A stretch of DNA of 64,000 nt, from contig CAWELD010000003.1 in NCBI GenBank assembly GCA_963809895.1, forward strand, positions 1,760,001 through 1,824,000, written 5' to 3'. Made by a program: the position numbers and the translations under genes. Shown one piece after another: positions 1,730 to 15,746 of the stretch (position 1 is its first letter; each line of letters starts with the position of its first letter). The stretch is from an uncultured Gemmatimonadales bacterium (lineage in GTDB: Bacteria > Gemmatimonadota > Gemmatimonadetes > Longimicrobiales > Gaopeijiaceae). Under the pieces are notes generated by a model. It was given only the letters and a program-made list of their open reading frames with translations, had not been told where the DNA came from and did not search any database.

Positions 1730-2551
1730 TCAGTTCCTGGTATAGATGGCGGCGGTGAGGGAGTCCGCGACTTGCCTCCCCGAGGTGGGGTTCTTGGCTT
1801 CCGAGCGTGCCCGGACCGTGACCCGGATCTCGCGAACGTCCGTGGCGACGGTGGCCGTCGCCCCGTTCTCATCGAAGTACGAGAAGACGAGTCCCGGCGT
1901 CGATGAGTCGTAGGAGACCAGCGGCCCCACCAGAGGAACGGCGTCCTGCCCCGGCGCCTTGCGCCCGAGATACGCCTGACCGTTCTCCTCGTAGAGGCCG
2001 TACGTGTAGGTCCCATAGGCTCGGATGGGCGCACCCATCCGTACCGAGTCGTTGGTGAAGTCGGCGTTGTATCCCGCGAAGGTCAGATCCTGCGCCGCGT
2101 CGCCGTTCGAGCAGGTCACCGAATTGTCTGCGGCCGAGACCACCGCGGAGATCCAGGCGTCGTCCGACGACTTGGCCTCCTCGTTGTCGGCGTACACGAA
2201 GACGGAGTCGCCGACGACGAAGCTGTCGGCACCCGCCGGGCGCACGCGAAGCGTCGGCGTCGTGGTCCAGTCCGGATCGCAGGTGACGCCGAAGGCCCGC
2301 ATGACGTGAACGGTGAGGGAGTCCTCGCTGAAGGACAGGATGTCCCCGCCCCGGCTACTCACCTCCCGGAGCTCGTTGAAGAGAACGTCCATGGCCGCGC
2401 GCGTGGACTGCTGCGCACGAACGTGCTCGTTCTGGACGGTGTAGGTGCGCTGGTTGACGACCAGTACCTGATAGGTCGCGAGAACCAGGAGTACGCCGAC
2501 CACAGCGACCACCAGCAACTCGACCAGCGTGAATCCGCGTCGTGTGCGCAT
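1730..2551 (-). CDS. PilW-like minor pilin (cassette 1)
   Basis: MRTRRG|FTLVELLVV class III signal with E5; QQSTRAAMDVLFNELR helix; C-terminal IYTRN; start overlaps the upstream stop. Confidence 0.85.
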   Translation of the reverse strand: MRTRRGFTLVELLVVAVVGVLLVLATYQVLVVNQRTYTVQNEHVRAQQSTRAAMDVLFNELREVSSRGGDILSFSEDSLTVHVMRAFGVTCDPDWTTTPTLRVRPAGADSFVVGDSVFVYADNEEAKSSDDAWISAVVSAADNSVTCSNGDAAQDLTFAGYNADFTNDSVRMGAPIRAYGTYTYGLYEENGQAYLGRKAPGQDAVPLVGPLVSYDSSTPGLVFSYFDENGATATVATDVREIRVTVRARSEAKNPTSGRQVADSLTAAIYTRN

Positions 2552-2937
2552 CACGGCCTCACGATCCGGTAGTCGAAGGTGTCGGCGACCTGGCCCTTGA
2601 GGCCGGGCATGCCCGAGCCGGAGCTGAGTCCGGGTCCCACGGTCACGATATGCACGGTCACCGACCGCTGACCCGCGGTCACGGTCCACTTGGCCGCGAA
2701 GTTCCCGATGGAGTCGGCGCCGGCCGTGATGCTGTCGTAGTCCATGCTGCGCAGCCGTTCGATGACGGATTGCAGCGCGGCAGAGCGTTCCGTGGTGACG
2801 CCCGACAGGGTGACCTGCCGTACCGCGAGCGCCGTGGTGCCCGCGAGGCCCAACACCCCCACGGTGAGGATGATGAGGGCCACCAGGACCTCCACGAGCG
2901 TGAAACCGCCCTCCCGGATCCGCCGACGGGTCGTCAC
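2551..2937 (-). CDS. PilV-like minor pilin (cassette 1)
   Basis: REGG|FTLVEVLVALIILTVGVLGLAG, a PilV-type N-terminus; GTGA overlap with the upstream gene. Confidence 0.85.
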   Translation of the reverse strand: MTTRRRIREGGFTLVEVLVALIILTVGVLGLAGTTALAVRQVTLSGVTTERSAALQSVIERLRSMDYDSITAGADSIGNFAAKWTVTAGQRSVTVHIVTVGPGLSSGSGMPGLKGQVADTFDYRIVRP

Positions 2938-3386
2938 CGGACGATCTGGCCGAGGGGAAGCATGTGGAGCGAGACCGTGTCGGCGCCCGCTCCGAAATAG
3001 ATGTTGATCACCGAATTGAAGGACATGCAGCTCTGGTCCCCGTAGCCGCGGGCGTTCATGCACACCGTGATCGGGTTGGACGATGCGTTGCTCCACACGT
3101 CCACCCCCAGCTCACTCCGGAAGTGGATGGTCTCGAGAACGCGCCCGGCCAGCACGACCGACGCGCTGTCGCCCTCGGTGTCCAGGACCAGATCCACCTC
3201 TGTGCCTCGCTCGATGGCGTGTGCGCGAGTGCGGGCCTGGAGGGCTTCGAAGGTCTTCATCGCCTGCTGAGCGGCCAGGCGACGCTGAACGTCGCCCAGG
3301 GCCCTGCCCACCAGGGAGAGGATGAGCCCGGCGACGACGATCGTCACCGTGAGCTCGATGAGAGTGAAGCCGGCCCGCCGGGTCAT
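2934..3386 (-). CDS. FimT/FimU (GspH-like) minor pilin (cassette 1)
   Basis: MTRRAG|FTLIELTVTIV; LQARTRAHAIERG matches the FimT helix motif; C-terminal LPLGQI. Confidence 0.85.
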   Translation of the reverse strand: MTRRAGFTLIELTVTIVVAGLILSLVGRALGDVQRRLAAQQAMKTFEALQARTRAHAIERGTEVDLVLDTEGDSASVVLAGRVLETIHFRSELGVDVWSNASSNPITVCMNARGYGDQSCMSFNSVINIYFGAGADTVSLHMLPLGQIVR

Positions 3387-3435
3387 GGATGTCCCATCGA
3401 AGGGAGGAGCGCACACGAAACCGGCCCCCCAGGAG

Positions 3436-3451
3436 TGCCAGTTCCATGCCA
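3436..3451 (-). promoter_or_regulatory. Sigma-54 -24/-12 promoter of minor-pilin cassette 1 (TGGCATGGAACTGGCA)
   Basis: TGGCA start with exact GG-N10-GC spacing, ~50 bp upstream of the fimT-like ATG. Confidence 0.65.
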
Positions 3452-3562
3452 TGCCACGGGCTGCATTATTACGCCCTCACGGTGCCCCCCGAAACCCCCC
3501 GGGTGGTCACTTTCTGCCGGGTAGTGGCAAACATTGCCGGTCCGGTGGCGTCGACTCCATCG

Positions 3563-4588
3563 TCAGGGGAGGCTCCATCCCGGGCGCGGCAGCACCACCG
3601 GGCGCCGCAGGGTCGAGTCGGCAACCAGCGCCGTGTACGCCGCGCACGGCCCGGCCACCCAACCCCCGTCGGCGACGACGAACGACCCTCCGACACGGGC
3701 GACGCCCTCGATCCGCGCCCCCGCGTCCACCCGCAGGTCTCCCGCCACGAGCACCATCCCCCGGAACGTCACGCCCGAAAGCACCAGGTCGCCGTCCACG
3801 ACCAGAAGTCCCTGCCCCACCCCACCACGCACCTCGAGATCGCCGGCTCGGGCCAGTCCGACGAACCGTTGCGCGCACGGGGACTCCGGATCGAGGGGAT
3901 CGCCCCAGTTCCAGGGTGCCGCCGCACAGGCTCCGTCCGAGACCGCCGGCGCGGGCGTGCCCCATGCCCCGCTCAGCGGCTCGAGCCTCGCGAGAACGGT
4001 ATCCGCCGACAGGTACCCGAGCGCGAGCGGCTCCGACGCCCCGGGACCGCTCCCCGCTCGAACCCCGACCAGGGGACGCGATCCCACCGGAGGCAACAGG
4101 CCCGACGGGCAAGCCGTCGTCTCACCCTCGCCTACCGCCGCCCGGGTGGCGGGATCGGTGACCATGCCGGTCTCCACGGCCCGGGGCAGCGCCGCCAGAC
4201 GCGCCACGGGATCCAGGGCCCACGCCAGGGCCCCGGCCTCGGACCCGACGCCGGCCGAGTCCACCCTCCCCGAGACGAGCGCCAGCTCCGGTGACAGCCG
4301 TCGCGACCACGTCAGCGCCCGCCCTCCCGGAATCACCACCGTAGTGGTGTCCAGCGACAGGGAGTCCGGCAAGCTGTCCAACGCCCGTGCGCCGGCAGCG
4401 GCGAGGGAGGTGGCGCCCCACTGGCGCGCGCGCACCGCCCCGACCACCGCTCCGGTGCGCCGGTGCATCCGCAACAGCACGAGAGAGGCATGGGCCAGCC
4501 CGGTGAAGGCGAGCAGGAGCAGCAGCACCAGAACCAGCACGAACCCTCGCCGTGCCGGCCCGGACCGGCTGAAGGTCAGGGCACCCAT
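3563..4588 (-). CDS. PilX-like minor pilin (cassette 2), paralog of 526..1699
   Basis: ARRG|FVLVLVLLLLL, no E5; shares WGDP.DP.S.C and GQG.L..DG motifs with the cassette 1 PilX. Confidence 0.7.
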   Translation of the reverse strand: MGALTFSRSGPARRGFVLVLVLLLLLAFTGLAHASLVLLRMHRRTGAVVGAVRARQWGATSLAAAGARALDSLPDSLSLDTTTVVIPGGRALTWSRRLSPELALVSGRVDSAGVGSEAGALAWALDPVARLAALPRAVETGMVTDPATRAAVGEGETTACPSGLLPPVGSRPLVGVRAGSGPGASEPLALGYLSADTVLARLEPLSGAWGTPAPAVSDGACAAAPWNWGDPLDPESPCAQRFVGLARAGDLEVRGGVGQGLLVVDGDLVLSGVTFRGMVLVAGDLRVDAGARIEGVARVGGSFVVADGGWVAGPCAAYTALVADSTLRRPVVLPRPGWSLP

Positions 4589-5241
4589 CGTCGTCTCCGC
4601 TCGTTGGTCGACCAGGGCACGGCCAGCACGAGCTCCACCGCACCCGCCCGCACGTCGAGGCGGGTGCGTGCCGGGTCCAGGACCGCAGCTGTGAGCGGCT
4701 GTCGGCCGGCCGCGCCGCGCCGATACCGGAAGGCGTCGTTCGCCGCGTACAGTCCGGCCTCGAACAGGCGCACGAACACGGGAGTCTCTCCGTCGGTGTC
4801 GTCGCCGTTCCAACGCAGCCGCAACGGACGCCCCCCGGACGGACATACCACGCCCGACGGCGGCGGCTCCACCGCCGCGAGAGCCACCACGGACCGCCTA
4901 CCATCGGCCGAGACCAGCTCCAGCGAGTCCTTGGCGGGGTCCGGTTGCCGTAGCCCGCGGTAGCGCACCGTGGCGCCCGGCGACGCCCCCCCACAGGCGA
5001 ATCCCCATCCCCGGAAGACGCGAAGCGCGACCCCGGCGGGGTCGGTCCGCCAATCTTCTCCGGCTCGGCCACCGGCCAGCTCGCGGTCCAGGATTCCACT
5101 GGCGAGGCGGCTCGCCTCCAGCGCCGCGGCCTCGTCCATGAGCATGCGCGAGGCGCGCACGCCCCGCTCCGCCACCGTCCACGCGCCGCGCACGACGAGG
5201 AGCCCGAGCAAGAGGGCCATCAGGACTTCCGTGAGCCTCAT
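4576..5241 (-). CDS. PilW-like minor pilin (cassette 2)
   Basis: MRLTEVLMALLLGLLVV (E5 plus hydrophobic helix), ILDRELAG, later YRRGAAGRQPL; position between PilV- and PilX-like genes. Confidence 0.65.
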   Translation of the reverse strand: MRLTEVLMALLLGLLVVRGAWTVAERGVRASRMLMDEAAALEASRLASGILDRELAGGRAGEDWRTDPAGVALRVFRGWGFACGGASPGATVRYRGLRQPDPAKDSLELVSADGRRSVVALAAVEPPPSGVVCPSGGRPLRLRWNGDDTDGETPVFVRLFEAGLYAANDAFRYRRGAAGRQPLTAAVLDPARTRLDVRAGAVELVLAVPWSTNERRRRWVP

Positions 5242-5633
5242 GGCGGCGACTCCGTCCAGGCGGGGCCCGCCACCCAGATCCTTGTCATGGGTGCGACGTC
5301 CGCGGAAGGGTCACGCACTCCCTCCACCAGGACACCGGGACCCACCGCCGCCCAACGCAGCGTGCCCCAGCTCTCGTCGCGGGCCCCCCCGGCAGCGACG
5401 CGGCCCGCCACCAACGAGTCCGCCATCGCCGAGGCGGCCCACTGCGCGGCTTCCACGCGTCGGGCCACCGCGAGCTCCGCCACGGCGAGGCGCATGATCC
5501 CGGCGACCCCCAGCAGCCCGATCTGGAGGACGACCAGCGCGACCAGGACTTCGACCAGGGAGAACCCGTGGGCCCCGGCCCGTGTCTCGATCCCCGGCGT
5601 TCCGCCCCCGGGCTCAGCGCGCCACGCGGCCAT
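5238..5633 (-). CDS. PilV-like minor pilin (cassette 2)
   Basis: AHG|FSLVEVLVALVVLQIGLLGVAG; start codon uncertain. Confidence 0.75.
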   Translation of the reverse strand: MAAWRAEPGGGTPGIETRAGAHGFSLVEVLVALVVLQIGLLGVAGIMRLAVAELAVARRVEAAQWAASAMADSLVAGRVAAGGARDESWGTLRWAAVGPGVLVEGVRDPSADVAPMTRIWVAGPAWTESPP

Positions 5634-6096
5634 AGGACGAGATGCGGAGAGTCGTGGTGGCCTCACCCCTGACGAGTCGAATGGTCCGGCTGGCGACCTG
5701 TCCCAGGCCCAGCGGTCCGTAGGCCACCGGTGCGATGTCGCGACCCGGATCCAGGCGAACGGTCCAGAGGGAGTCCAGGGCCAGCGTGGCCAACTGGGAA
5801 TCCGCCGCCTCGAGGCGTACCACCGAAGAGGGGACGTCGAAGGTGACGCGCGAGCCGCCCCAGCGGGGTGCTTCAGCACGGGCGCGAGCCAGGACCGACA
5901 CGAGCGCCTCGCGCGCGGAGCGGACGGCCCAGCGGTCCCGAAGACCCGCGGCGGCCGGCGCTGCCATGGACAGTGCCATGGAGAGCAGGAGCAAGACCGT
6001 GGCCAGCTCCAGCAACGTCGCGCCCGACGGAGGGCGTGCCGCGTGAGAAGGGCCTGCCCCGTGACCGGGGCTCCGGAAGAAGAACGGCGTCGTCAT
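5614..6096 (-). CDS. FimT/GspH-like minor pilin (cassette 2)
   Basis: SG|ATLLELATVLLLL...AAP; LARARAEA motif; C-terminal ISSYGRV. Confidence 0.75.
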   Translation of the reverse strand: MTTPFFFRSPGHGAGPSHAARPPSGATLLELATVLLLLSMALSMAAPAAAGLRDRWAVRSAREALVSVLARARAEAPRWGGSRVTFDVPSSVVRLEAADSQLATLALDSLWTVRLDPGRDIAPVAYGPLGLGQVASRTIRLVRGEATTTLRISSYGRVAR

Positions 6097-6147: not shown

Positions 6148-7509
6148 CTACTTCAGGCCGTAGTCCTGGATCTTGTAGCGGAGCGCGCGCGGGCTCAGCT
6201 CCAGGAGCTCCGCGGCCTGTGTGCGGTTTCCGCCGGTCCGCTCCAGCGCCCGCTCGATGAGGTGCTTCTCCAGCGCGGCAAGCCTCCGTTTCACGGACAG
6301 GTCACCGTTGTCGGACGCCTCCATGCCCGCACCGGCCGGTGTGGGAACTCGCACGTGCTCCGGGAGATCGGTCAGGGCGATGTGGTCTCCGTCGGCCAGC
6401 ACCAGCGCACGCTCGAGAACGTTCTCCAGCTCGCGCACGTTGCCGGGCCACGAATAGTCCAGCAGCGCCTGCATGGCCTCGGGCGTGATACTGTCCACCC
6501 GCACATCCAGACGACGCTGGTGCCGCTCCAGAAGGTGCACGGCCAAGTCGGGAATCTCCTCCTGCCGCCTGACCAGGGGTGGGAGCTGGATGGGCACGAC
6601 GGCGAGGCGGTAGAACAGATCCTCCCGGAATTCCCCGCTCCCCACCGCCTCCTCCAGGTCCCGGTTGGTGGCGGCGATGATGCGCGTATCGACGCGCGTG
6701 GTCTCGGAGCCACCCACAGGCCGGATCTCGCCTTCCTGGAGTGCGCGCAGGAGCTTCACCTGAAGTGGCGGTGGCAGCTCCCCCACCTCGTCCAGGAAGA
6801 GCGTCCCCCCGTGCGCGGCGGTGAAGAGTCCCATTCGATCCCGCTCGGCGCCCGTGAAGGCTCCCCGAACGTGGCCGAAGAACTCGCTCTCCAGAAGATT
6901 CTCGGGAATGGCGCCGCAGTTCACCGGAACGAAGGGGCCCGAGTGCCGGCCGCTCTCGCGGTGGATGAGGCGAGCGACCAGCTCCTTTCCGGTGCCGCTG
7001 GCCCCGGACAGGAGCACCGGGGAGTCGTGAGGCGCCACGCGCGTCGCCACCTCCAGCGCCCGCACCATGGCGGGCGAGCGGGCGACGAGATCGCCGAAGC
7101 GGGCGTCGGCCCGCACTTCCTGACGCAGGCGCCCCACCTCCTGACGCAACTCCTTGCGCTCCTCGGCCATCTGCACCTTGAGGAGCACCTCATCGGCCCC
7201 GAACGGCTTGGCGAGGTAGTCGTCCGCGCCACGGCGGACCGCCTCCACGGCGAGCTCGGGCGACCCGTAGGCCGTCATGACGAGGACGATCCCTTGACCC
7301 CCCTCGTCACGATAGCGCTCGAGGAAGGTGAGCCCGTCGATCCTGGGCATGCGTACGTCACACAGGATCATGGCCGGGGACTCCGCCAGGGCGCGCTCCA
7401 GTCCCTCCTCGCCATCCTGGGCATGGAGGACCTCGTAGCCGGCGTCCTCGAGGATGAGGGTGAGCGACCTCCGAAGCCCCTTGTCGTCATCGATCACGAG
7501 GATCTTCAC
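6148..7509 (-). CDS. Sigma-54-dependent response regulator (NtrC/PilR family)
   Basis: REC domain (ILVIDDD, CDVRMP, MTAYG, AKPF), AAA+ (GASGTGKE, GAFTGA, FLDEVGE), Fis-type HTH. Confidence 0.95.
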   Translation of the reverse strand: MKILVIDDDKGLRRSLTLILEDAGYEVLHAQDGEEGLERALAESPAMILCDVRMPRIDGLTFLERYRDEGGQGIVLVMTAYGSPELAVEAVRRGADDYLAKPFGADEVLLKVQMAEERKELRQEVGRLRQEVRADARFGDLVARSPAMVRALEVATRVAPHDSPVLLSGASGTGKELVARLIHRESGRHSGPFVPVNCGAIPENLLESEFFGHVRGAFTGAERDRMGLFTAAHGGTLFLDEVGELPPPLQVKLLRALQEGEIRPVGGSETTRVDTRIIAATNRDLEEAVGSGEFREDLFYRLAVVPIQLPPLVRRQEEIPDLAVHLLERHQRRLDVRVDSITPEAMQALLDYSWPGNVRELENVLERALVLADGDHIALTDLPEHVRVPTPAGAGMEASDNGDLSVKRRLAALEKHLIERALERTGGNRTQAAELLELSPRALRYKIQDYGLK

Positions 7510-8762
7510 GCGTCGTCTCCCTCGTCGTTGGTGCCCGGAAGCCTGATCACGAACTCGGCGCCGCCGCCCTCGGCTTCATCCACGTGCAGTCGTCCTCCCA
7601 TTCCTTCCACGAAACGAGCCGAGATGTAGAGTCCCAACCCCGTCCCCTTCCCCGGCTCCTTGGTCGTGAAGAAGGGGTCGAAAACCCGCTCGCGGTCCGC
7701 GGCAGGGATGCCCGGGCCGTTGTCACGGATGCGAATCACCACGACGCGGGAGGCGGTGAAGAGGGTGTCCACACCACCGGGAGCCCGGTCGCGCGACACG
7801 CGCCGCCGATGCATGTAGTTGATTCCCGGTGGATCGTCCTGACGTCGTGCCGGCAAGGCCTGGACCGCACCCGCCTGCGCCTCCAGGGTGATGCGGATCC
7901 GCGGCGCGGGATGGTCCGAGAGGGCGTCCAACGCGTTGAGGAGCAGGTTCACCATCACCTGCTCCAGGCGGGCCGGCTCCATGACCACGGGCGGGAGCTG
8001 CGTCTTCGGATCGGGCCAACTCGCGTCCACCCCGTCCAGGCGGCCCTGGCGCTCGAGGAGCGTGTGTACCCTGTCCACGACCTCCGGCACGCGAGCCGCG
8101 CGCGCCACCTCGTCCTTGTGGCGGGCGAAGTCCAGCAGACTCCGCACCAACAGGTCGATGCGCTCGGCCTCGGCACGGATCGAGTCCAGCAACTCGGTGT
8201 CACCGCCGTCACGCCGAGCACGGCCGCGCGCGACATCGGTGAACGCCACGATGGCGCCCAGCGGATTCCCGACCTCGTGGGCGATCCCCGCCGCCAGCGT
8301 TCCCACCGACGCGAGACGCGCCGCCTGAACCACCTGATCCCGGGCCTCGACGAGCTCCCGGTTGGTGCGATCCAGGGATACCACGTTCTCGGTGAGGAGC
8401 TCCTGATTGTGGACGAGTCGGTCCGCCATGGTGTTCACACCCTCGCGGATCACGTCGAACTCGGCGGTCTGGACCGGGGCGATGCGGTGATGGTAGTCCC
8501 CGTCGGAGATGCGCTGCACGTCGGCGACCAGGCGGTCGACGGGATCCATGAGGCGGGTCTTGAGGATCCGGTGGCCGAACAGCGCCAATACGGTGAGATC
8601 GCCCAACACCATGAGCAGCAGGTACACCGTCACCTGCGCCGCGCTGTCCAGGAGCGGAAGAACCGCCGCCAGGGCGACCCCGGTGACGATCACCGCCCCC
8701 ACCAGGAGGACGGCGAAACTACCGAGAAGCTCGCGTCTCAGGGGAACCGAAGCTCGACGCAT
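7506..8762 (-). CDS. Membrane sensor histidine kinase with HAMP domain (PilS2-like)
   Basis: Two TM helices, HAMP, H-box AHEVGNPL, N-box [26 protein letters not shown]; start could extend to 8870. Confidence 0.93.
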
Positions 8763-8880
8763 GGCGCGGTTGAGGATCCGGAGGAGCAGGGCCCTCCCCC
8801 GTGGACGGCCCGGGTTCAGGATGGGACGGCGGACGGCCAGCGGCAACGCTCGCGCTACACCGTCACCCATGGGATCCGAC

Positions 8881-9285
8881 TCAGAACGTGCAGGTCACCA
8901 GGCCGGGCCGGTCCGCGGGATCACCGCCGGAGGGATCTGCTTTGCCCTGATAGATCCCGCAGTGCTCGTCTGGAAGGCCCACGTGTTCGGCGGTGGCGGC
9001 CCATCCCTCGTTGTTCGCCGAGTTGATGGTGACGGTGACGCCCTCGCTGACCTCGGCTTCGAGCTCGGAGAGGTCGGCGCTGTACCGGGTCGCGTCGCGA
9101 TAGAAGAGCTCCTGCTGGTTGGCCAGGTTCTTCAGATCGGACTTGATGGTCGCCTGGAACGCCTTCTCCTTGGCGCTGCGGAAGCGGGGAATGGCGATGA
9201 GGGCCAGGATGCTGATCACGATCATGGCGATCATCAACTCCACCAGGGTGAAGCCGCCTCTCTGCCGGTGCCGCGTCGACGTCAT
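8881..9285 (-). CDS. Type IVa pilin, second copy (PilA2/PilE-like)
   Basis: QRGG|FTLVELMIAMIVISILALIAIP; KSDLKNLA; C-terminal Cys pair. Confidence 0.9.
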   Translation of the reverse strand: MTSTRHRQRGGFTLVELMIAMIVISILALIAIPRFRSAKEKAFQATIKSDLKNLANQQELFYRDATRYSADLSELEAEVSEGVTVTINSANNEGWAATAEHVGLPDEHCGIYQGKADPSGGDPADRPGLVTCTF

Positions 9286-9399: not shown

Positions 9400-9793
9400 T
9401 CAGGTGCCGGTCTCGTTGCTGCAGAGGACCACGCCGGCGGCGGTGGCGGGGCTGGCCGCGGCCACGTCGCCGTAGTACAGCCCGCAGGTCACGCTCGTGC
9501 CGCTGTGCGCGGAGGTGGCGTTCCAGCCGTCCGTGGAGGCGGCGCCAGGCGTGATGGTCACGTTCTTGGACTCGGAGAACTCGAGAGCCGGACTTGTCGG
9601 TCGAGTAGACGAAGTTGTCCGCGTAATAGAGCTCTTCCTGCGTGGCCAGGTTCTTCAGGTCCGACTTCATGGCCGAGATGAAGGCCTTCTCACGGGCCTC
9701 GGAGAACTTCGGAATGGCGATGGCCGCCAGGATTCCGATGATCACCACGACGATGAGGAGCTCGATCAGCGTGAAGCCCTTGTTGTTGCGCAT
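9400..9793 (-). CDS. pilA: Major type IVa pilin PilA, with a +1 frameshift at ~9590
   Basis: MRNNKG|FTLIELLIVVVIIGILAAIAIPKF. Removing one base at ~9590 restores ...STDKSALEFSESKNVTITPG...CGLYYG...VVLCSNETGT*, collinear with the paralog at 8881. Own promoter and terminator. Confidence 0.88.
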
Positions 9794-9847
9794 GGATGGG
9801 ACTCCTGTGGAATGGGGTAAGGGGCTGCCGCTCGGCCGGAAGGAAGG

Positions 9848-9862
9848 GCAAGGACGGTTCCA
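9848..9862 (-). promoter_or_regulatory. Sigma-54 promoter of pilA (TGGAACCGTCCTTGC)
   Basis: GG-N10-GC with TTGC -12 element; PilR-type activator encoded nearby. Confidence 0.8.
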
Positions 9863-9880
9863 CATGTGCCACAGCCATCG

Positions 9881-9893
9881 TAATACGTTGATA
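9881..9893 (-). promoter_or_regulatory. IHF-binding site upstream of the pilA sigma-54 promoter
   Basis: TATCAACGTATTA is an exact WATCAANNNNTTR match in an AT-rich patch just upstream of -24. Confidence 0.7.
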
Positions 9894-9978
9894 TACAGTC
9901 ACTTAGAATACCTCTGCCTTCGCGTCCACCGCATCTGCGCCTACCCCCGCGTCTTGGATTCTGCAAGATACGGGAGAT

Positions 9979-11856
9979 TTACAACGCCCCCCCTCCACCG
10001 GGGATCGCGGCCCTGAGGCTGTCCACGGTTCGGCGCTCTTCCGGGCCCGGCGCGCGGGCACGAGCCGAGTCCAGAGCGTCCCTCGCCCCGTCCGGGTCGC
10101 CGGAACGGGCGCGGGCCTGGGCGAGCCAGTACCACTGGAGCCAGGCGTCGCGCTCTCCACGCTGCAGGAGAGCCTCGCGAGCCGCCCGGGCCTCGGGCCA
10201 CCGCCCCTCCTCGCCGAGTGCGGTGGCCAGGAGGTGCCAGGCCGGCACGGACGCGTCATCGGCGCGGATCGCCGCCCGAGCCCACCGCTCGACCTCGGCC
10301 CAGCGCTCCTCCGCGGCAGCCTGCACCGCCAGGAGCAGCGGAGCATCGCGCTGACCCGGATCCAGCTCCCACGCGCGAACCAGGAAGGGCCGTGCGTGAC
10401 GGGGCAGCCCGGCGTCCAGGAGCTTGCGCCCGGACTCGAGGTTGAAGACACGCGACGAGCCCAGAAGCGGGACCGCGGCCCGGTAGGCACGAAGTGCCTC
10501 GGCCTGCCGTCCCTCGCGCAGGAGCAGATCGGCCCTGGCCCAGCGGCTGCGCCCCGACTCGGGAGCCTGGTCCAGCAGGTAGCCGATGAGGGTGGCCTGA
10601 TCCCGCCAGACCGGGACGTAGATCAGGGTCCGTAGCGCGAGCCCGCCTGCGAGCACGAGCGCAATCACGCGGACGCTCGCCCGGGGGCGCCCCCGTCGCG
10701 GCAACAAGGCGGCGGCTCCGACCCCGATGGCGGCGGCGAAGCCCACCGACGGCAGATAGAGCGTGCGCTCGGCCAACAAGACGCCGGCGAGGAACAGGAG
10801 GTTGCTCACCGGAAGGATCGCGGTGGCGAACCAGAGCACCCCGAAGGGCAAACCGGCCAGCGGCGCCCAACGCGCACCCGTGCGCCGCGCCGCGGCCAGG
10901 GCGACTCCCAGGATCGCCAGCACCGCCAGGGCGCCGGCTACCCCTACCGGACTCCAGGTGGTGCGCACCGCGACGACCGCAGGGCTGTAGTCCGGGAGCA
11001 GCCGCGCGGGCCACACGAGGAGACGCAGGTATTCGAGCCACACCGGCGCCATGGTCCAGATGCGGGGAATGTCGGTGAGAAGCGCGGCCCCGAGCGGGGG
11101 CTCGGCGTGGGGTGCGAAGCTGCCCAGGACCCGCCAGCGAGCAAGGAAGAAGGCCACGAGGACCACCGCCATCCCCACGAAGAGCGGGGCCCGCCGCCGG
11201 AGGTAGGGGCGCAAGCCAGCCACGGTCAGGCGCCGGCGCACCGCGTCCACGAGCACGACCAGCGCCGGAAGCACCACCGCCACCTCCTTGGCCAGCAGCC
11301 CCGTGGCGAAGAGCCCCAGGATGGCCAGCGTTCGCGGAGCGTCTGGCGCTGCGTCGCCAGGGGCCGGGTGAGCACCCGGAGTCCGCGCCACCAGAACACA
11401 CGCTCCCAGAACGGGCACCGCCGCCAGGAGCTCGGCCTGCCCCACCACGTTGGCCACCGCCTCCACATGCACCGGGTGAAGGGCGAACACGACGCCGGCC
11501 GCGATCCCCGCCGCCAGGGAGAACAGCTCCGACACCAGCAGGACGACCAGGGCCGACGCCAGGGCGTGCAGAACCAGGTTGGTCAGGTGGAAAATCCAGG
11601 GTGCACCGCCGCCCACCGCCCAGGTCAGGGCCAGCGCCAGCGAGGTCGCCGGTCGCCACAGCCCCAGCTCCCGACCGCTGGACACGGGCCACCACGGGGA
11701 GCCCAGGAGCTCGGGCAGGCGCCTCAGGTCGTGGAGCGCCGGATTGTTCGCCACCACCGTCAGGTCGTCCAGCGCGAAGCCATTGGCCAGGCTCGGAAGG
11801 AACACCACGCCGGCCAACAGGGCCACTGCCAGGGTGGCGCGCCGGAGCGGAGTCAT
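9979..11856 (-). CDS. TMTC-like GT-C glycosyltransferase (protein O-mannosyltransferase family) with C-terminal TPRs
   Basis: FALDD loop, [50 protein letters not shown]; multiple TM helices; TPR-like helical tail. ATGA overlap with the upstream GT2. Confidence 0.85.
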
Positions 11857-12707
11857 CCGGCTTCTCGGTCCCCCTCCGTCAACGCCTCGCCGCCGAAGTC
11901 CCGTTCCACGCGCGTCTTCCATGCCGGCTGTTCCGGTGCGGCCCAGCGATCGGCATGTGGGCCCAGGACGTTGTAGCGCAGGATGGACCAGAGCGCCGAC
12001 ACGCCGTCCTTCCAGCCGATCTTCTTTCCCTCGGCGTAGGAGCGGCCGTGATAGCTGATGGGCAGCTCGTAGATGCGGGCGCCGGCCTGCGCCAGCCGTG
12101 CCGTGAGCTCGGGCTCGATCCCGAAGCGGTCCGCCGTCAGCGGGAGCGTCTGGAGCAGCTCACGGCGGACCATCTTGTAGCAGGTCTCCATGTCCGTGAG
12201 GTTCAGGTCGGTGAACATGTTGCTGAGCAGCGTGAGCAGGCGGTTCCCCACGCTGTGCCAGAAGAGGAGCACCCGGTGGGGTCCTCCGAGAAAGCGCGAG
12301 CCGAAGACGGCGTCGGCCTGGCCCTGGAGGATGGGCTCCAGGAGGAGCGGGAGCTCGAGGGGATCGTACTCCAGGTCCGCATCCTGGACCACCACCACGT
12401 CGCCGGTGGCGTGCTGGAATCCCGTCCTCAGCGCAGCGCCCTTGCCGCGATTCCGCTCGTGGAGCACGAGAACGTCGATGAGACCCTCTTCGTCCAGTCC
12501 GGGAAGAAGATCACGCGTGCCGTCGGTGGAGCCGTCGTCCACCACGACGATCTCGACCTGCAGCGGCACCCCGCGCACCCGCTCGAGAAGCGCGCGCACC
12601 GTGCCGATCTCGTTGTAGACCGGCACCACCACGGAAAGGCGCACCACGTCCCAGGGCAGGGACGGATCCACGTCGAGCCGTTCGAAGCGTCGCGGCGAAG
12701 AAGCCAC
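11853..12707 (-). CDS. GT2 glycosyltransferase, dolichol/polyprenol-phosphate mannose synthase-like
   Basis: [60 protein letters not shown]. Confidence 0.93.
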
Positions 12708-12717
12708 GTGCGCGCCC

Positions 12718-14088
12718 TCAGGCCTCGATGCCGTATCGGTTCAGCTTCCGATACAGCGTCGACGGATCGATGCCCAACACCTCGGCCGCCCGGGTCTTGT
12801 TGCCCCCCTCGGCCTGCAGCACCCACTGGATGTAGGCGCGCTCGATGACCTCCATAGACGGATTCGGCGGTGGCGCCTCGGAGATCAGTCGCGGTGTGGG
12901 GGCCTCCCGGACGCGCTCCGGGAGATGACCCGGCTCGATGGTCTTGCCGCCGGCCACCACCGCGGCCCGCTCCAGCGCGTTCTCCAGCTCCCGCACATTG
13001 CCCGGCCAGTCGTACTCGCCCAGCACTTCGAGGGTGTCCTCACTGAGCTCGGGCGCGGCCTCTTCGCCACTCTCCGCCGCCAGCTTGGCCAGGAAGTGGC
13101 GCGCCAGCAGAGGGATGTCGTCGCGACGGTCCCGCAGGGGAGGCAGATGCAGCGCGATGACGTTCAGGCGGTAGTAGAGATCGCTGCGGAAGTTGCCGCG
13201 CCGGATCTCGTCCTCCAGGTCGCGGTTGGTGGCCGCCACGAGGCGCACGTCCACCGAGACCGGCTCGGTCGCGCCCACCGGGATCACCTCGCGCTCCTGG
13301 AGCGCCCGCAGGAGCTTGACCTGGGTCGCCGGGCTCATCTCGCCGATCTCGTCCAGAAAGAGCGTCCCGCCGTGGGCGGCCTCCAGAAGGCCGGTCTTGT
13401 CCCGGACGGCGCCCGTAAAGGACCCCTTCACATGGCCGAACAGCTCGCTCTCCAGAAGGCTCTCGGGCAGGGCGCCGCAGTTGATGGAGTTGAAGGCGCG
13501 CTCCGAGCGCTCGGACAGCGCATGCAGGTAGCGCGCGACGACCTCCTTTCCGGTGCCGCTCTCACCGCTGATGAGGACGGTGGAATCGGTAGGAGCCACC
13601 GTCTCCGTGAGTTTGAGCACGTCGGTGAAGCTCCGCGCCTTGCCGATGGGCCGCTCGGCGGCACGCCGGTCCCGGCGACGGATCTCCTTCTTGAGCGCCT
13701 TGTTCTCCACCTTGAGCTCACGAGCCTCCGCGGCACGCCGGCAGATGGCCAGGAGCTCGTCGTTGGCGAAGGGCTTCTGGAGGTAGTAGTAGGCCCCTTC
13801 GTTCACGGCCCGCACCGCCGATTGCAGCGACGCCTGTGCGGTCATGAGAATGACCGCCATCTCGGGATCCACTTCGCGCGCCCGGGCCAGAAGCTCGAGG
13901 CCTGAGGTCCCGGGCATGCGGATGTCGGTGAGGATGATGTCCGGGCGATCCCCCTCCAGCAGCGCCAGGGCTTCCTTGCCCGACAACGCCGCCGACACGT
14001 CGTAGCCCTCGCCCTTGAACAGGATCTTGAGGGAATCGAGAATCCCCGTCTCGTCGTCCACAAGGAGAATCTTCACTCGCTCGCTCAC
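12718..14088 (-). CDS. pilR: Sigma-54-dependent response regulator, PilR-like
   Basis: [45 protein letters not shown] overlap with the pilS-like kinase, upstream of pilA. Confidence 0.85.
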
Positions 14089-15746
14089 GTCGCCACGGCC
14101 CCACCCCGGACCGGATCGCCGGGAAGAAAGAGAATGAACTCGGCTCCACCACCCGGGGCGTCCTCCACCAGCAGCGCGCCCTGGTGGGCCTCCACCGCGC
14201 GGTGCACCACCGCCAGCCCCAACCCGCTCCCACCCTTTCTGGTGGTAAAGAAGGGCTGGAATATGCGCTCCACCTCGCCCGCGGGCACCCCTGGTCCCGC
14301 ATCGCGCACCCGCAAGCACACCGGGTTCGCCATGGAAACCGGGAGCCGCTCCTCGCCCCGGAGATCCTGCAGCTCCACCTCGACCATCCCCCCCGGATCC
14401 GAGAACTGGATCGCGTTCAGCACCATGTTGAACACGGCGCGGTGCAGGAGGTCGGCGTCACCCGGAAGGCGAGGGGACACCTCGGGTCCGATGACGCTCA
14501 CCTCCACCCCGTCTTTGGCATCCGGATGGTGTCGGGCCACGCTCACCGCCCCCCGCACCACCTCGCCGAAGTCCACGCTCTCGCTCCGTCCCATGCGCAG
14601 TCCCGAGAACTCCAGGAACTCGCTCAGCAGGCGGGACAGACGGTCCGACTCGGCCAGGACCAGGTGCTCCAGGGTGGCCCGATCGCCGTCGTCCAGATTC
14701 TTGTGCGTGAGCTGCTCCACCGCGCTCCGAATCGACGCCAGCGGGTTCTTGATCTCGTGGGCCAGCGAGGCGCTGAGCTCGGCCACCGCCTCCAGGCGGT
14801 CGTTGCGGCGGTTCAGGAGCTCGAGCCGCTCCTCCCGGGTGATGTCCTGGAAGATGGCGGTGGCAGAGGGGGCTTCGTCGCCCTGTCGGTCCAGGATGGT
14901 GGTGCTGATCCCCAGCGTGACGTCCTCGCCCTCGCGCCGTGCGGTGGCCTTGGCACGGGCCAGCGGTACGCGGTCCTCCACGGACTTCCGGAGCACGGTA
15001 CCCATCCCCGGCGCGACCTCCTCCAGCACCCCCACCACCGGGGCGCCGATCCACTGCCCGCGGTCCAGTCCGAGGAGCAGGGCGCCGGCGGGATTCAGAT
15101 ACGCCAGACGTCCGCTGCCGTCCACGGTGAGCACGCCGGTCTGAAGGCTGTCCAGGATGTCCGAGGTGTCGAGCCGGAGCTGCTCGAGCTCCGACTCCAC
15201 GGCTCCCAGCCGCATGCCGGTGCGCCGGAAGCGATCGCCCAGGACACCCGTGACGGTGGCCACCAGGGCGAACAGCCCGATCTGGAGTGCCACCTGCCCG
15301 CCGTTGATGGCTCCCGCGTGCAGCCAGACGATGTCGGCGAAATAGAGGACGATGGCCAGCGCGCCCATGAAGACCCCGCCCGGAAGGGGCAGGAGGAGCG
15401 CGCCCTCGGCGATGACCAGGATGTAGAGGGGCGCGAAATCGCTGGCCGCACCCCCGGTGATGTGGACGATGGCGGTGACCATGACCGCGTCCATGACCAC
15501 CTGTCCGTACAGGAAGGCCCTGCCGGGCTCCATCCCCCGAACGTGCGTCCACCAGAAGGATGCCGCGGTGGCGGTGACCCCCACCAGGAAGACCACGAGC
15601 GCGACCAGCGTCTGCGCCTGATCTCCGCGCAGGACGAGCTCGGGGGATTCCCGGCCGGCGAAGAAGGCGCCGAGCAGGATCCCGGATACCAGCGTGACCC
15701 GACCCAGGTAGAGCCAGCGCAGAAGCTCACTTCGGGCCAGGACCAA
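14085..15746 (-). CDS. pilS: Sensor histidine kinase, PilS-like (multi-TM, PAS, HisKA, HATPase)
   Basis: WLYLGRV N-terminus, VHITGG..SDF..LY PilS-type membrane motif, PAS, AHEIKNPL, GSGLGL. Confidence 0.85.
   Translation of the reverse strand: MVLARSELLRWLYLGRVTLVSGILLGAFFAGRESPELVLRGDQAQTLVALVVFLVGVTATAASFWWTHVRGMEPGRAFLYGQVVMDAVMVTAIVHITGGAASDFAPLYILVIAEGALLLPLPGGVFMGALAIVLYFADIVWLHAGAINGGQVALQIGLFALVATVTGVLGDRFRRTGMRLGAVESELEQLRLDTSDILDSLQTGVLTVDGSGRLAYLNPAGALLLGLDRGQWIGAPVVGVLEEVAPGMGTVLRKSVEDRVPLARAKATARREGEDVTLGISTTILDRQGDEAPSATAIFQDITREERLELLNRRNDRLEAVAELSASLAHEIKNPLASIRSAVEQLTHKNLDDGDRATLEHLVLAESDRLSRLLSEFLEFSGLRMGRSESVDFGEVVRGAVSVARHHPDAKDGVEVSVIGPEVSPRLPGDADLLHRAVFNMVLNAIQFSDPGGMVEVELQDLRGEERLPVSMANPVCLRVRDAGPGVPAGEVERIFQPFFTTRKGGSGLGLAVVHRAVEAHQGALLVEDAPGGGAEFILFLPGDPVRGGAVAT

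Follow-up and report, generated by a model that had tools for sequence, protein, structure and literature searches.

A candidate TfpW-type pilin O-glycosylation cassette between pilSR and pilA in Gemmatimonadota

Organization of the pilSR-pilA locus

The window analyzed here is a stretch of 64,000 nucleotides from an uncultured Gemmatimonadales bacterium (contig CAWELD010000003.1, positions 1,760,001 to 1,824,000, GenBank assembly GCA_963809895.1), the genome of which (G000; 5.33 Mb in 11 contigs) is 95% complete. It carries a type IV pilus locus in which a GT2 glycosyltransferase gene and a gene for a 625-amino-acid membrane protein with tetratricopeptide repeats (TPRs) lie between pilSR and the major pilin gene, and these two genes form the candidate glycosylation cassette considered below. 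All genes of the locus are on the minus strand, in the order pilS, pilR, GT2, membrane/TPR protein, pilA1, pilA2, a kinase/regulator pair, and minor pilins. The pilS-type sensor histidine kinase (14085..15746) contains the Pfam domains 6TM_PilS, PAS, HisKA, and HATPase_c. Its TGA shares 4 nt (GTGA) at 14088 with the GTG start of a sigma54-dependent response regulator (12718..14088; Response_reg, Sigma54_activat, HTH_8), which is named PilR because of its position after pilS. The GT2 gene (11853..12707), encoding a predicted polyprenyl-phosphate sugar synthase, follows after 10 bp, and its TGA overlaps by 4 nt (ATGA) with the ATG of the membrane protein (9979..11856). Based on its predicted fold, a family profile, and TPR Pfam matches, this protein was classified as a GT-C membrane glycosyltransferase of the TMTC/TfpW family with C-terminal TPRs, and it is referred to below as the transferase.

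A gap of 185 bp separates the transferase gene from pilA1, so pilA1 is uncoupled from the genes upstream. The original prediction, made from the sequence alone, had described pilS, pilR, the GT2, and the TMTC-like gene as a tightly coupled series leading directly into pilA. The 4-nt overlaps and the 10-bp gap bear out the coupling of the first four genes; it does not extend to pilA1, which has its own predicted sigma54-type −24/−12 promoter (TGG-N8-TTGC; 9848..9862, minus strand) within the gap. The same pattern precedes 26 of 34 pilins at the loci examined here, compared to 0.8% of shuffles. We infer from this arrangement that the GT2 and the transferase are expressed with pilSR, while pilA is expressed from its own PilR-dependent promoter.

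The candidate acceptor is the major type IV pilin PilA1 (9400..9793; N_methyl), the reading frame of which is shifted by one extra base near 9586-9590. Two contigs from other sequencing runs (97-98% identity) each lack one base at this site (one contig each, at a depth below 5), and the equivalent pilins of relatives have open frames; the frameshift is therefore probably an assembly error. With an X placed at the break, approximately 24% of PilA1 residues beyond mature residue 28 are Ser or Thr, compared to 14% in the second type IV pilin, PilA2 (8881..9285; N_methyl). The Ser/Thr-rich part of PilA1 includes the loop region in which TfpW, a pilin glycosyltransferase discussed below, modifies Thr64 and Thr66 of its own pilin.

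Downstream of the pilins lies a second histidine kinase and sigma54 regulator pair (6148..8870). The kinase has a HAMP domain, and the pair is kept between major and minor pilins across the class. A cluster of minor-pilin-like genes (2551..6096) follows, with N_methyl found in three of the six open reading frames (ORFs) scanned and a gene order that is conserved in relatives.

The transferase, its relatives, and its predicted sugar donor

The motifs quoted for the transferase in the original prediction are all present: the DD pair at residues 30-31, the 18-residue segment HP.H.E.V..VVG.AELL at 127-144, AERTLYLPS at 362-370, and a TPR tail at approximately 430-605. The DD pair (11764..11769, minus strand) is the predicted catalytic motif of the first external loop and corresponds to M1 of TMTC proteins and to the DDX motif of TfpW, with which it aligns. 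Across 120 homologues, D30, D31, R68, P69, F124, H127, H130, E132, K190, E191, E363, and R364 are invariant, and D289 is nearly so. Because these residues stand out from a mean column identity of 39%, the motifs are not due to chance. The family is large (125,754 clusters at E ≤ 0.001). Close named homologues come mostly from Longimicrobiales or Gemmatimonadota, among them a Gaopeijia maritima protein (P0009) with 47% identity; most named matches are called TPR or hypothetical proteins, and a plasmid collection contained no match.

An AlphaFold model of the transferase had a mean confidence (predicted local distance difference test, pLDDT) of 94 at full length and 88 for the membrane domain (residues 1-430). 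When the modeled membrane domain was compared to 48,161 chains using VIA-align, the top 20 matches were all of the GT-C fold (Z 9.3-20.5), led by AglB (Z 20.5, root mean square deviation 5.2, 342 residues aligned), Pmt2 (19.5), Pmt4 (18.9), and ArnT (18.3); the next unrelated chain scored 7.3. Foldseek returned the same GT-C families for the membrane domain, with E values no better than 3e-3, and only TPR-type and other helical-repeat proteins for the full-length model. A sequence search of the PDB gave TPR matches only, the membrane-domain profile matched nothing there, and no close solved structure was found. Ten hydrophobic segments were counted in a simple hydropathy scan, compared to 11 for TfpW. 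The model predicts a GT-C fold for the transferase.

Animal TMTC1-4 are placed in CAZy family GT105 (PMC8724618) and are described in PMC7801869 as Dol-P-Man (dolichyl phosphate mannose)-dependent protein O-mannosyltransferases of cadherins. The motif table of that source (Table 4) lists M1 (DD), M2 (SHKSYRP), M3 (RxD), M4 (KE), M5 (D(W)), and M7 (ERxxY). The transferase shares with these proteins a membrane domain followed by TPRs, and M1 (D30, D31), the RP end of M2, M4 (K190, E191), M5 (D289, Y290), and M7 (E363, R364, Y367) occur in matching order, assigned by motif and order rather than by alignment to an animal sequence. It differs in its shorter TPR tail and in two motifs. M2 reads RELGLWRP, in which RP alone is retained, and the missing SHKS residues are modeled as mannose contacts in TMTC, according to PMC7801869. 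M3, likewise among the modeled mannose contacts, reads QAE, where several relatives have RAE and TfpW has RFD. At an E value of 0.01, Pfam and NCBIfam named the TPRs alone and assigned no family, TMTC_DUF1736 and PMT_2 included, to the membrane domain. The best DUF1736 match of the whole genome falls at the expected loop of the transferase (10927-11067), at 16.1 bits against a cutoff of 27. Weak DUF1736 matches (14.4-20.8 bits) were seen in 10 of 25 homologues and PMT_2 matches in 7 of the 25, three of them above cutoff, and one more distant family member reached 30.1 bits for DUF1736 in a genome search and 26.5 in hmmscan. In the ESM Atlas, a eukaryotic DUF1736 cluster scored 0.92, at rank 22 of 30. 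The link to animal TMTC proteins draws on the motifs, these weak DUF1736 scores, and the single ESM Atlas row. The GT-C and TMTC-like identity first proposed is supported by the predicted GT-C fold and most TMTC motifs; the subthreshold DUF1736 score and the loss of SHKS speak against the more specific assignment, and we do not file the transferase as a TMTC mannosyltransferase.

A closer comparison is offered by TfpW, a 646-amino-acid GT-C protein with 11 predicted transmembrane (TM) segments and a TPR located in the periplasm. Its gene comes directly after pilA, the enzyme attaches D-arabinofuranose (D-Araf) to pilin Ser/Thr by O-linkage, and mutation of its DDX motif abolishes glycosylation (bioRxiv 10.1101/2020.04.19.049825). 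According to PMC12369383, strain PA7 carries a pilA-tfpW-tfpX cassette. Here, 34 genomes belonging to a single Pseudomonas genus were searched and yielded a pilA-gene-TfpX cassette with the YX6PFX7P motif; TfpW was identified by the membership of the encoded proteins in a cluster with ABR83954, ABR86283, and ABR85415. The membrane-domain profile (A2) matched TfpW of P. paraeruginosa PA7 (P0265, ABR86283, between pilA and TfpX) with 91.6 bits, and a 99%-identical allele (P0262) aligned over profile positions 7-401 of 404. As controls, 22 further membrane proteins (cassette-encoded or ArnT-like) and nine further proteins encoded downstream of pilA scored at most 14.6 bits. By BLASTP, the transferase and TfpW are 23% identical over 450 amino acids (E 2e-8), and the DD, RP, HP..VE, KE, and ER motifs align. 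The comparison covers PA7-type alleles, while most TfpW experiments used the Pa5196 allele.

TfpW and the window transferase therefore belong to one sequence family; they also share size (639-646 versus 625 amino acids), GT-C motifs with a C-terminal TPR, and a position adjacent to pilA. TfpW uses a polyprenyl-phosphate monosaccharide donor, and the same donor type is predicted here. The two differ in that the window gene stands upstream of pilA in the pilSR operon, whereas tfpW lies downstream of pilA and is cotranscribed with it; in that the TfpW donor comes from an unlinked DPPR synthase/DprE pathway, whereas here the adjacent GT2 is the predicted source; and in that the window locus has neither TfpX nor the YX6PFX7P motif. 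With PA7 TfpW in the same family, of the same architecture, and likewise pilA-adjacent, the proposal of a new system distinct from TfpW is not supported; the sequences indicate that this is likely a TfpW-type system with a GT2-made donor. TfpO/PglL enzymes are also membrane proteins that O-glycosylate pilin, and their genes can adjoin pilA. They are O-antigen-ligase-like, however, and of an unrelated sequence family; the other pilA-downstream membrane proteins of Pseudomonadales, several ligase-like by eye, were not matched by the profile. TfpO/PglL enzymes move a prebuilt oligosaccharide from undecaprenyl diphosphate (bioRxiv 10.1101/2020.04.19.049825).

The GT2 matches PF00535 with 121.6 bits, contains DDGS and DADL motifs, and has no hydrophobic segment. 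Among solved structures, those nearest to it are Pyrococcus DPM synthase (5mlz, E 1.2e-17) and ArnC (E 4e-17), and its best NCBIfam model is AglJ, so that the fold, both motifs, and the best PDB and NCBIfam matches place it with the DPM synthase/ArnC/AglJ/PpgS/GtrB-type enzymes, as the original prediction had it. It differs from these in scoring below every NCBIfam equivalog cutoff and in having no TM domain. We predict that it loads a sugar onto polyprenyl phosphate. DPM synthase, ArnC, and AglJ all do so but with different sugars. With SHKS missing from the transferase, the GT2 as near to ArnC as to DPM synthase, and related cassettes carrying genes for other sugars, mannose cannot be assumed from the sequence data, and the mannose or hexose shift of +162 Da initially expected on the pilin no longer follows.

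D-Araf, the TfpW donor sugar, was considered and rejected for this organism. A search of G000 (95% complete) with NF008977 and two UbiA-type queries found no DPPR synthase, DprE1 and DprE2 not being among the queries, which leaves the adjacent GT2 as the obvious donor source. G000 contains a ManC-like nucleotidyltransferase domain below cutoff and no PF04138 match for a GtrA flippase. One gene of G000 resembles, by its motifs, a UDP-xylose synthase. In a Sedimenticolaceae locus (L113:7223-9230), a GT2 60% identical to that of the window lies just upstream of pilB. It is flanked by genes that are presumably UDP-glucuronate-decarboxylase-like and GtrA-like, again by their motifs, and these may be a clue to a xylose donor. 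UDP-xylose-synthase-like (UDP-glucuronate-decarboxylase-like) genes also occur in 5 of 80 metagenomic loci of related GT2s; the fetched Gemmatimonadota loci had none. Xylose is therefore raised as a hint only.

Linkage to pilA and the variable slot

Conserved synteny with pilA had been set beforehand as a check on the prediction, and it was found among close relatives and across the class. In a search of 41 genomes with the transferase, 27 matched; loci were fetched from 24 of the 26 other than G000, two TPR-only matches being omitted. The family gene is beside pilA in 17 of these 24, it occupies the pilR-GT2 slot where the contig ends in 2, and it is unlinked or cut off in 5. Eight genomes of the same taxonomic family without a transferase match are also without pilS. 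Phylum-wide, 72 of 121 genomes match the transferase family. From these, 26 were chosen with preference for contiguous assemblies (21 of the same class, 5 of other classes), and 19 of the 21 same-class genomes were linked, one of them to a minor-pilin-like gene and one with two intervening genes. Counted by locus, 20 of 31 at the class level are linked, five of these with the gene inverted yet still beside pilA. As all of these genomes are kin, the counts do not represent independent events. An unrooted FastTree tree with long branches places the window protein among 14 rows that form a subclade (support 99), every one of them pilA-linked. Of the fetched Gemmatimonadota loci, 32 contain a GT2 orthologue (56-79% identity), almost always at the pil locus, and the pair stays together away from pilins in one genome (G080).

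The space between pilR and pilA is variable in content. Twenty pilS loci were obtained from genomes without a linked copy. In six, pilA directly follows pilR, and such empty slots indicate that the cassette is accessory. In two the GT2 alone is left, two hold a GT-C enzyme of another family, and two have a membrane protein resembling spermidine synthase; the remaining loci have no pilA or end at a contig break. The 49 further proteins found within or next to the slot include 11 with PMT_2 matches, 6 methyltransferases, 4 GT2s, and 2 GT4s, as well as a UbiA/HAD pair and a DUF2304 protein. Some loci have tandem family genes, with two or three per locus. The slot is reminiscent of the pilin accessory cassettes of P. 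aeruginosa, which are exchangeable (bioRxiv 10.1101/2020.04.19.049825).

Several of the slot genes were recorded as separate observations. A second, mostly unnamed family comprises membrane proteins of approximately 500 amino acids with 26-53% mutual identity, some with weak PMT_2 matches (L059:11378-12943, L060, L065, L068, L076, L077, L078, L079, L081, L097, L246, and L249). It stands without a TMTC-like gene in G066 and G076, and its members are possibly alternative or elongating pilin glycosyltransferases. A membrane protein of approximately 1,030 amino acids with a spermidine-synthase-like domain is found in or beside the slot (L248:10922-14017, L252:4864-7968, L074:10345-13374), in two genomes without a TMTC-like gene. 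One slot encodes a 1,208-amino-acid fusion of another GT-C-type domain to a TMTC/TfpW-family domain (L045:4673-8299), followed by two more family genes. In G073, an HAD phosphatase and a UbiA prenyltransferase, resembling the first steps of D-Araf donor synthesis, are located near pilA and two family genes (L063:2420-4089). Farther afield, tandem triplets of family genes with TPR tails of up to approximately 390 amino acids occur in another class of the phylum with no pilin nearby (L087, L091, L093), and in a sister family (L238, L240, L241), a peptidase M54 gene comes after pilS-pilR, and there is no pilin gene.

The arrangement recurs outside the phylum. Loci around pilB were fetched, using a published primer, from named genomes, mostly Pseudomonadales; the matches numbered more than 119, and 80 gave full loci. 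In these 80, seven ORFs, all directly after pilA, were matched by the Gemmatimonadota profile. A GT2 gene came next in five of the seven, compared to 3 of the 73 other pilB loci, and these five GT2s are 28-31% identical to that of the window. Three of the GT2-bearing cassettes continue with a UDP-GlcNAc 2-epimerase. In Pseudomonas, the full series is pilA, TMTC-like gene, GT2, UDP-GlcNAc 2-epimerase, and an unnamed gene of 270-280 codons (L233:4578-9778, L234, L163), and these cassettes, found in hosts that can be cultured (P. delhiensis is one), are candidates for N-acetylmannosamine (ManNAc)-type glycosylation of pilin.

Interpretation and significance

Taken together, we interpret the GT2 and the TMTC/TfpW-family enzyme as an accessory TfpW-type pilin O-glycosylation cassette between pilSR and pilA, with a probability of about two in three. 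Adjacency to pilA and the reported modification of pilin by TfpW both support the pilin as the most likely acceptor, as had been proposed. In this scheme, the two enzymes would be made with PilS and PilR, and pilA would be switched on separately by PilR. At the inner membrane face, the soluble GT2, as a homologue of DPM synthase, ArnC, and AglJ, would form a polyprenyl-phosphate monosaccharide. The donor would then be flipped by some route and used outside the cytoplasm, in a predicted periplasmic active site composed of D30/D31, R68, H127/H130/E132, K190/E191, D289, and E363/R364/Y367, as modeled for TMTC and judged from fold and conservation. There, guided by its TPRs, the transferase would move the sugar onto pilin Ser/Thr, and the TPR tail may grip the folded head of a pilin that is still membrane anchored. 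By analogy to TfpW, the resulting sugar coat could shield the pilus from phages or stabilize the pilin, and the extra GT-C, methyltransferase, and other genes in the slots of relatives may vary the glycan.

A number of results weigh against this interpretation. At the level of the family, copies are often unlinked to pilins: 11 of the 31 class-level loci were scored as unlinked (one of them following pilB-pilT-pilC), and none of the five genomes from other classes of the phylum was linked. G000 itself has a second copy with 39% identity (L032:10360-12000; C3:2033359-2034999) next to rpsP/rimM/trmD-like genes. At the level of the slot, four pilR-pilA genomes (G030, G063, G071, G074) have no family match at all, indicating that pilins do not need the transferase; the GT2 stands in the slot of G004 and G009 with no transferase beside it; and in G066, a GT-C enzyme of another family accompanies the GT2. 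With regard to TfpW, the YX6PFX7P motif found in PA7-type TfpW and in the protein of G181 is missing from the window protein, where the aligned stretch is 17 residues long, and, in the tree, TfpW does not group as sister to the pilA-linked proteins of Gemmatimonadota. Family membership rather than orthology is thus what the comparison establishes, and the family may have been recruited to pilins on more than one occasion. Among 80 metagenomic loci of GT2s 48-66% identical to that of the window, 36 of them shorter than 5 kb, a TMTC-like neighbor was found in 3 and a pilin in 2. Finally, the Ser/Thr content of linked pilins is barely above that of pilins from enzyme-free genomes (0.24, n = 34, versus 0.20, n = 5; p = 0.07). 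With all rows included (35 versus 6), p was 0.028, and it rose to 0.068 once L060, a nonmajor pilin, and the apparently frameshifted G063 were dropped; as the genomes are also kin, Ser/Thr enrichment was set aside as support.

The second G000 copy was noted separately. It has a shorter TPR tail, belongs to another subclade, and lies just upstream of and divergent from the rpsP/rimM/trmD-like genes. Approximately 2-6 kb from it are genes for an ArnT-like PMT_2 protein and an asparagine-synthase-like amidotransferase.

The most serious alternative, which we consider unlikely, is that the transferase is a broader O-glycosyltransferase of periplasmic or surface proteins, with the pilin at most one substrate among minor pilins or other secreted proteins, and that the gene is kept by pilSR coregulation. 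Transcriptional coupling is indeed to pilSR rather than to pilA, many paralogues are unlinked, some of them nested among linked ones in the tree, and the tandem copies suggest more than one acceptor or step. The adjacency to pilA, however, survives inversion and the loss of pilSR or the GT2 and recurs in another phylum, and the one characterized member considered here, TfpW, has pilin as its reported substrate.

A second alternative accepts the pilin as acceptor and questions the pairing: the GT2 could be a general donor synthase that also serves other GT-C enzymes. The occurrence of the GT2 in slots without the transferase or with another GT-C family fits this idea, as does the scarcity of TMTC-like neighbors in its subfamily, and G000 holds five PMT_2 matches elsewhere together with further GT2 paralogues. 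The 4-nt overlap with the transferase gene, the concentration of GT2 orthologues at the pil locus, the intact pair away from pilins in G080, and the repetition of the pairing with a different GT2 in Pseudomonadales all argue the other way, and we regard a purely general role as improbable. The GT2 is of the donor-synthase type envisaged at the outset; its subfamily is not reserved for TMTC-like partners, with such a neighbor in only 3 of 80 loci.

Slightly less probable again is decoration of a lipid or polysaccharide by the pair, in the manner of ArnC/ArnT or GtrB/GtrC. The GT2 is about as near to ArnC as to DPM synthase, and the Z score of ArnT approaches the 18.7-20.5 of the protein transferases. 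Against this, an ArnT-like protein of G000 is unmatched by the family profile, both characterized branches of the family (TMTC and TfpW) are protein O-glycosyltransferases, and the TPR tail and the pilA linkage would be left without a role. A noncatalytic pilin chaperone or assembly accessory, comparable in role to TfpY/TfpZ, would suit an accessory-gene position beside pilA and the replaced Arg of motif M3, but is very improbable given the invariant DD, KE, and ER motifs in 120 homologues and the coupled gene of donor-synthase type.

Pilin glycosylation by a pilA-linked GT-C enzyme from a lipid-phosphate sugar is already known. The literature found regards TfpW as an oddity that weakly resembles Emb or ArnT, and it mentions prokaryotic TMTC homologues without giving them a function. 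No paper linking the TfpW and TMTC families or describing this locus was found in a search that covered few subscription journals, and one review of bacterial O-glycoproteomics makes no mention of TfpW, TMTC, or GT-C. A more comprehensive proposal would make TfpW and animal TMTC1-4 two branches of a single ancient family of protein O-glycosyltransferases that recognize folds under the guidance of TPRs. Its use in glycosylating type IV pilins would be widespread and repeatedly recruited in bacteria, with donor modules that can be swapped: D-Araf in P. paraeruginosa, a sugar made by the GT2 here, and a ManNAc-type sugar in some Pseudomonas. The pilR-pilA slot of Gemmatimonadota would then be a phylum-wide anti-phage glycan cassette, possibly with a nonmannose sugar such as xylose. 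Taken as a whole, this proposal is tentative, and we put it at somewhat below even odds; if it is true, the Gemmatimonadota cassette would be the simplest two-gene model for TMTC chemistry.

Overall, a very large unannotated bacterial family gains a relative that has been studied experimentally, as well as candidates for its donor gene and its acceptor. As no closely related protein of solved structure was found, a bacterial member of this compactness, with its small and Ser/Thr-rich substrate, would serve as a tractable model. According to bioRxiv 10.1101/150227, TfpW-dependent glycosylation blocks pilus phages; by analogy, the variable cassette between pilR and pilA may be a common receptor-masking defense.

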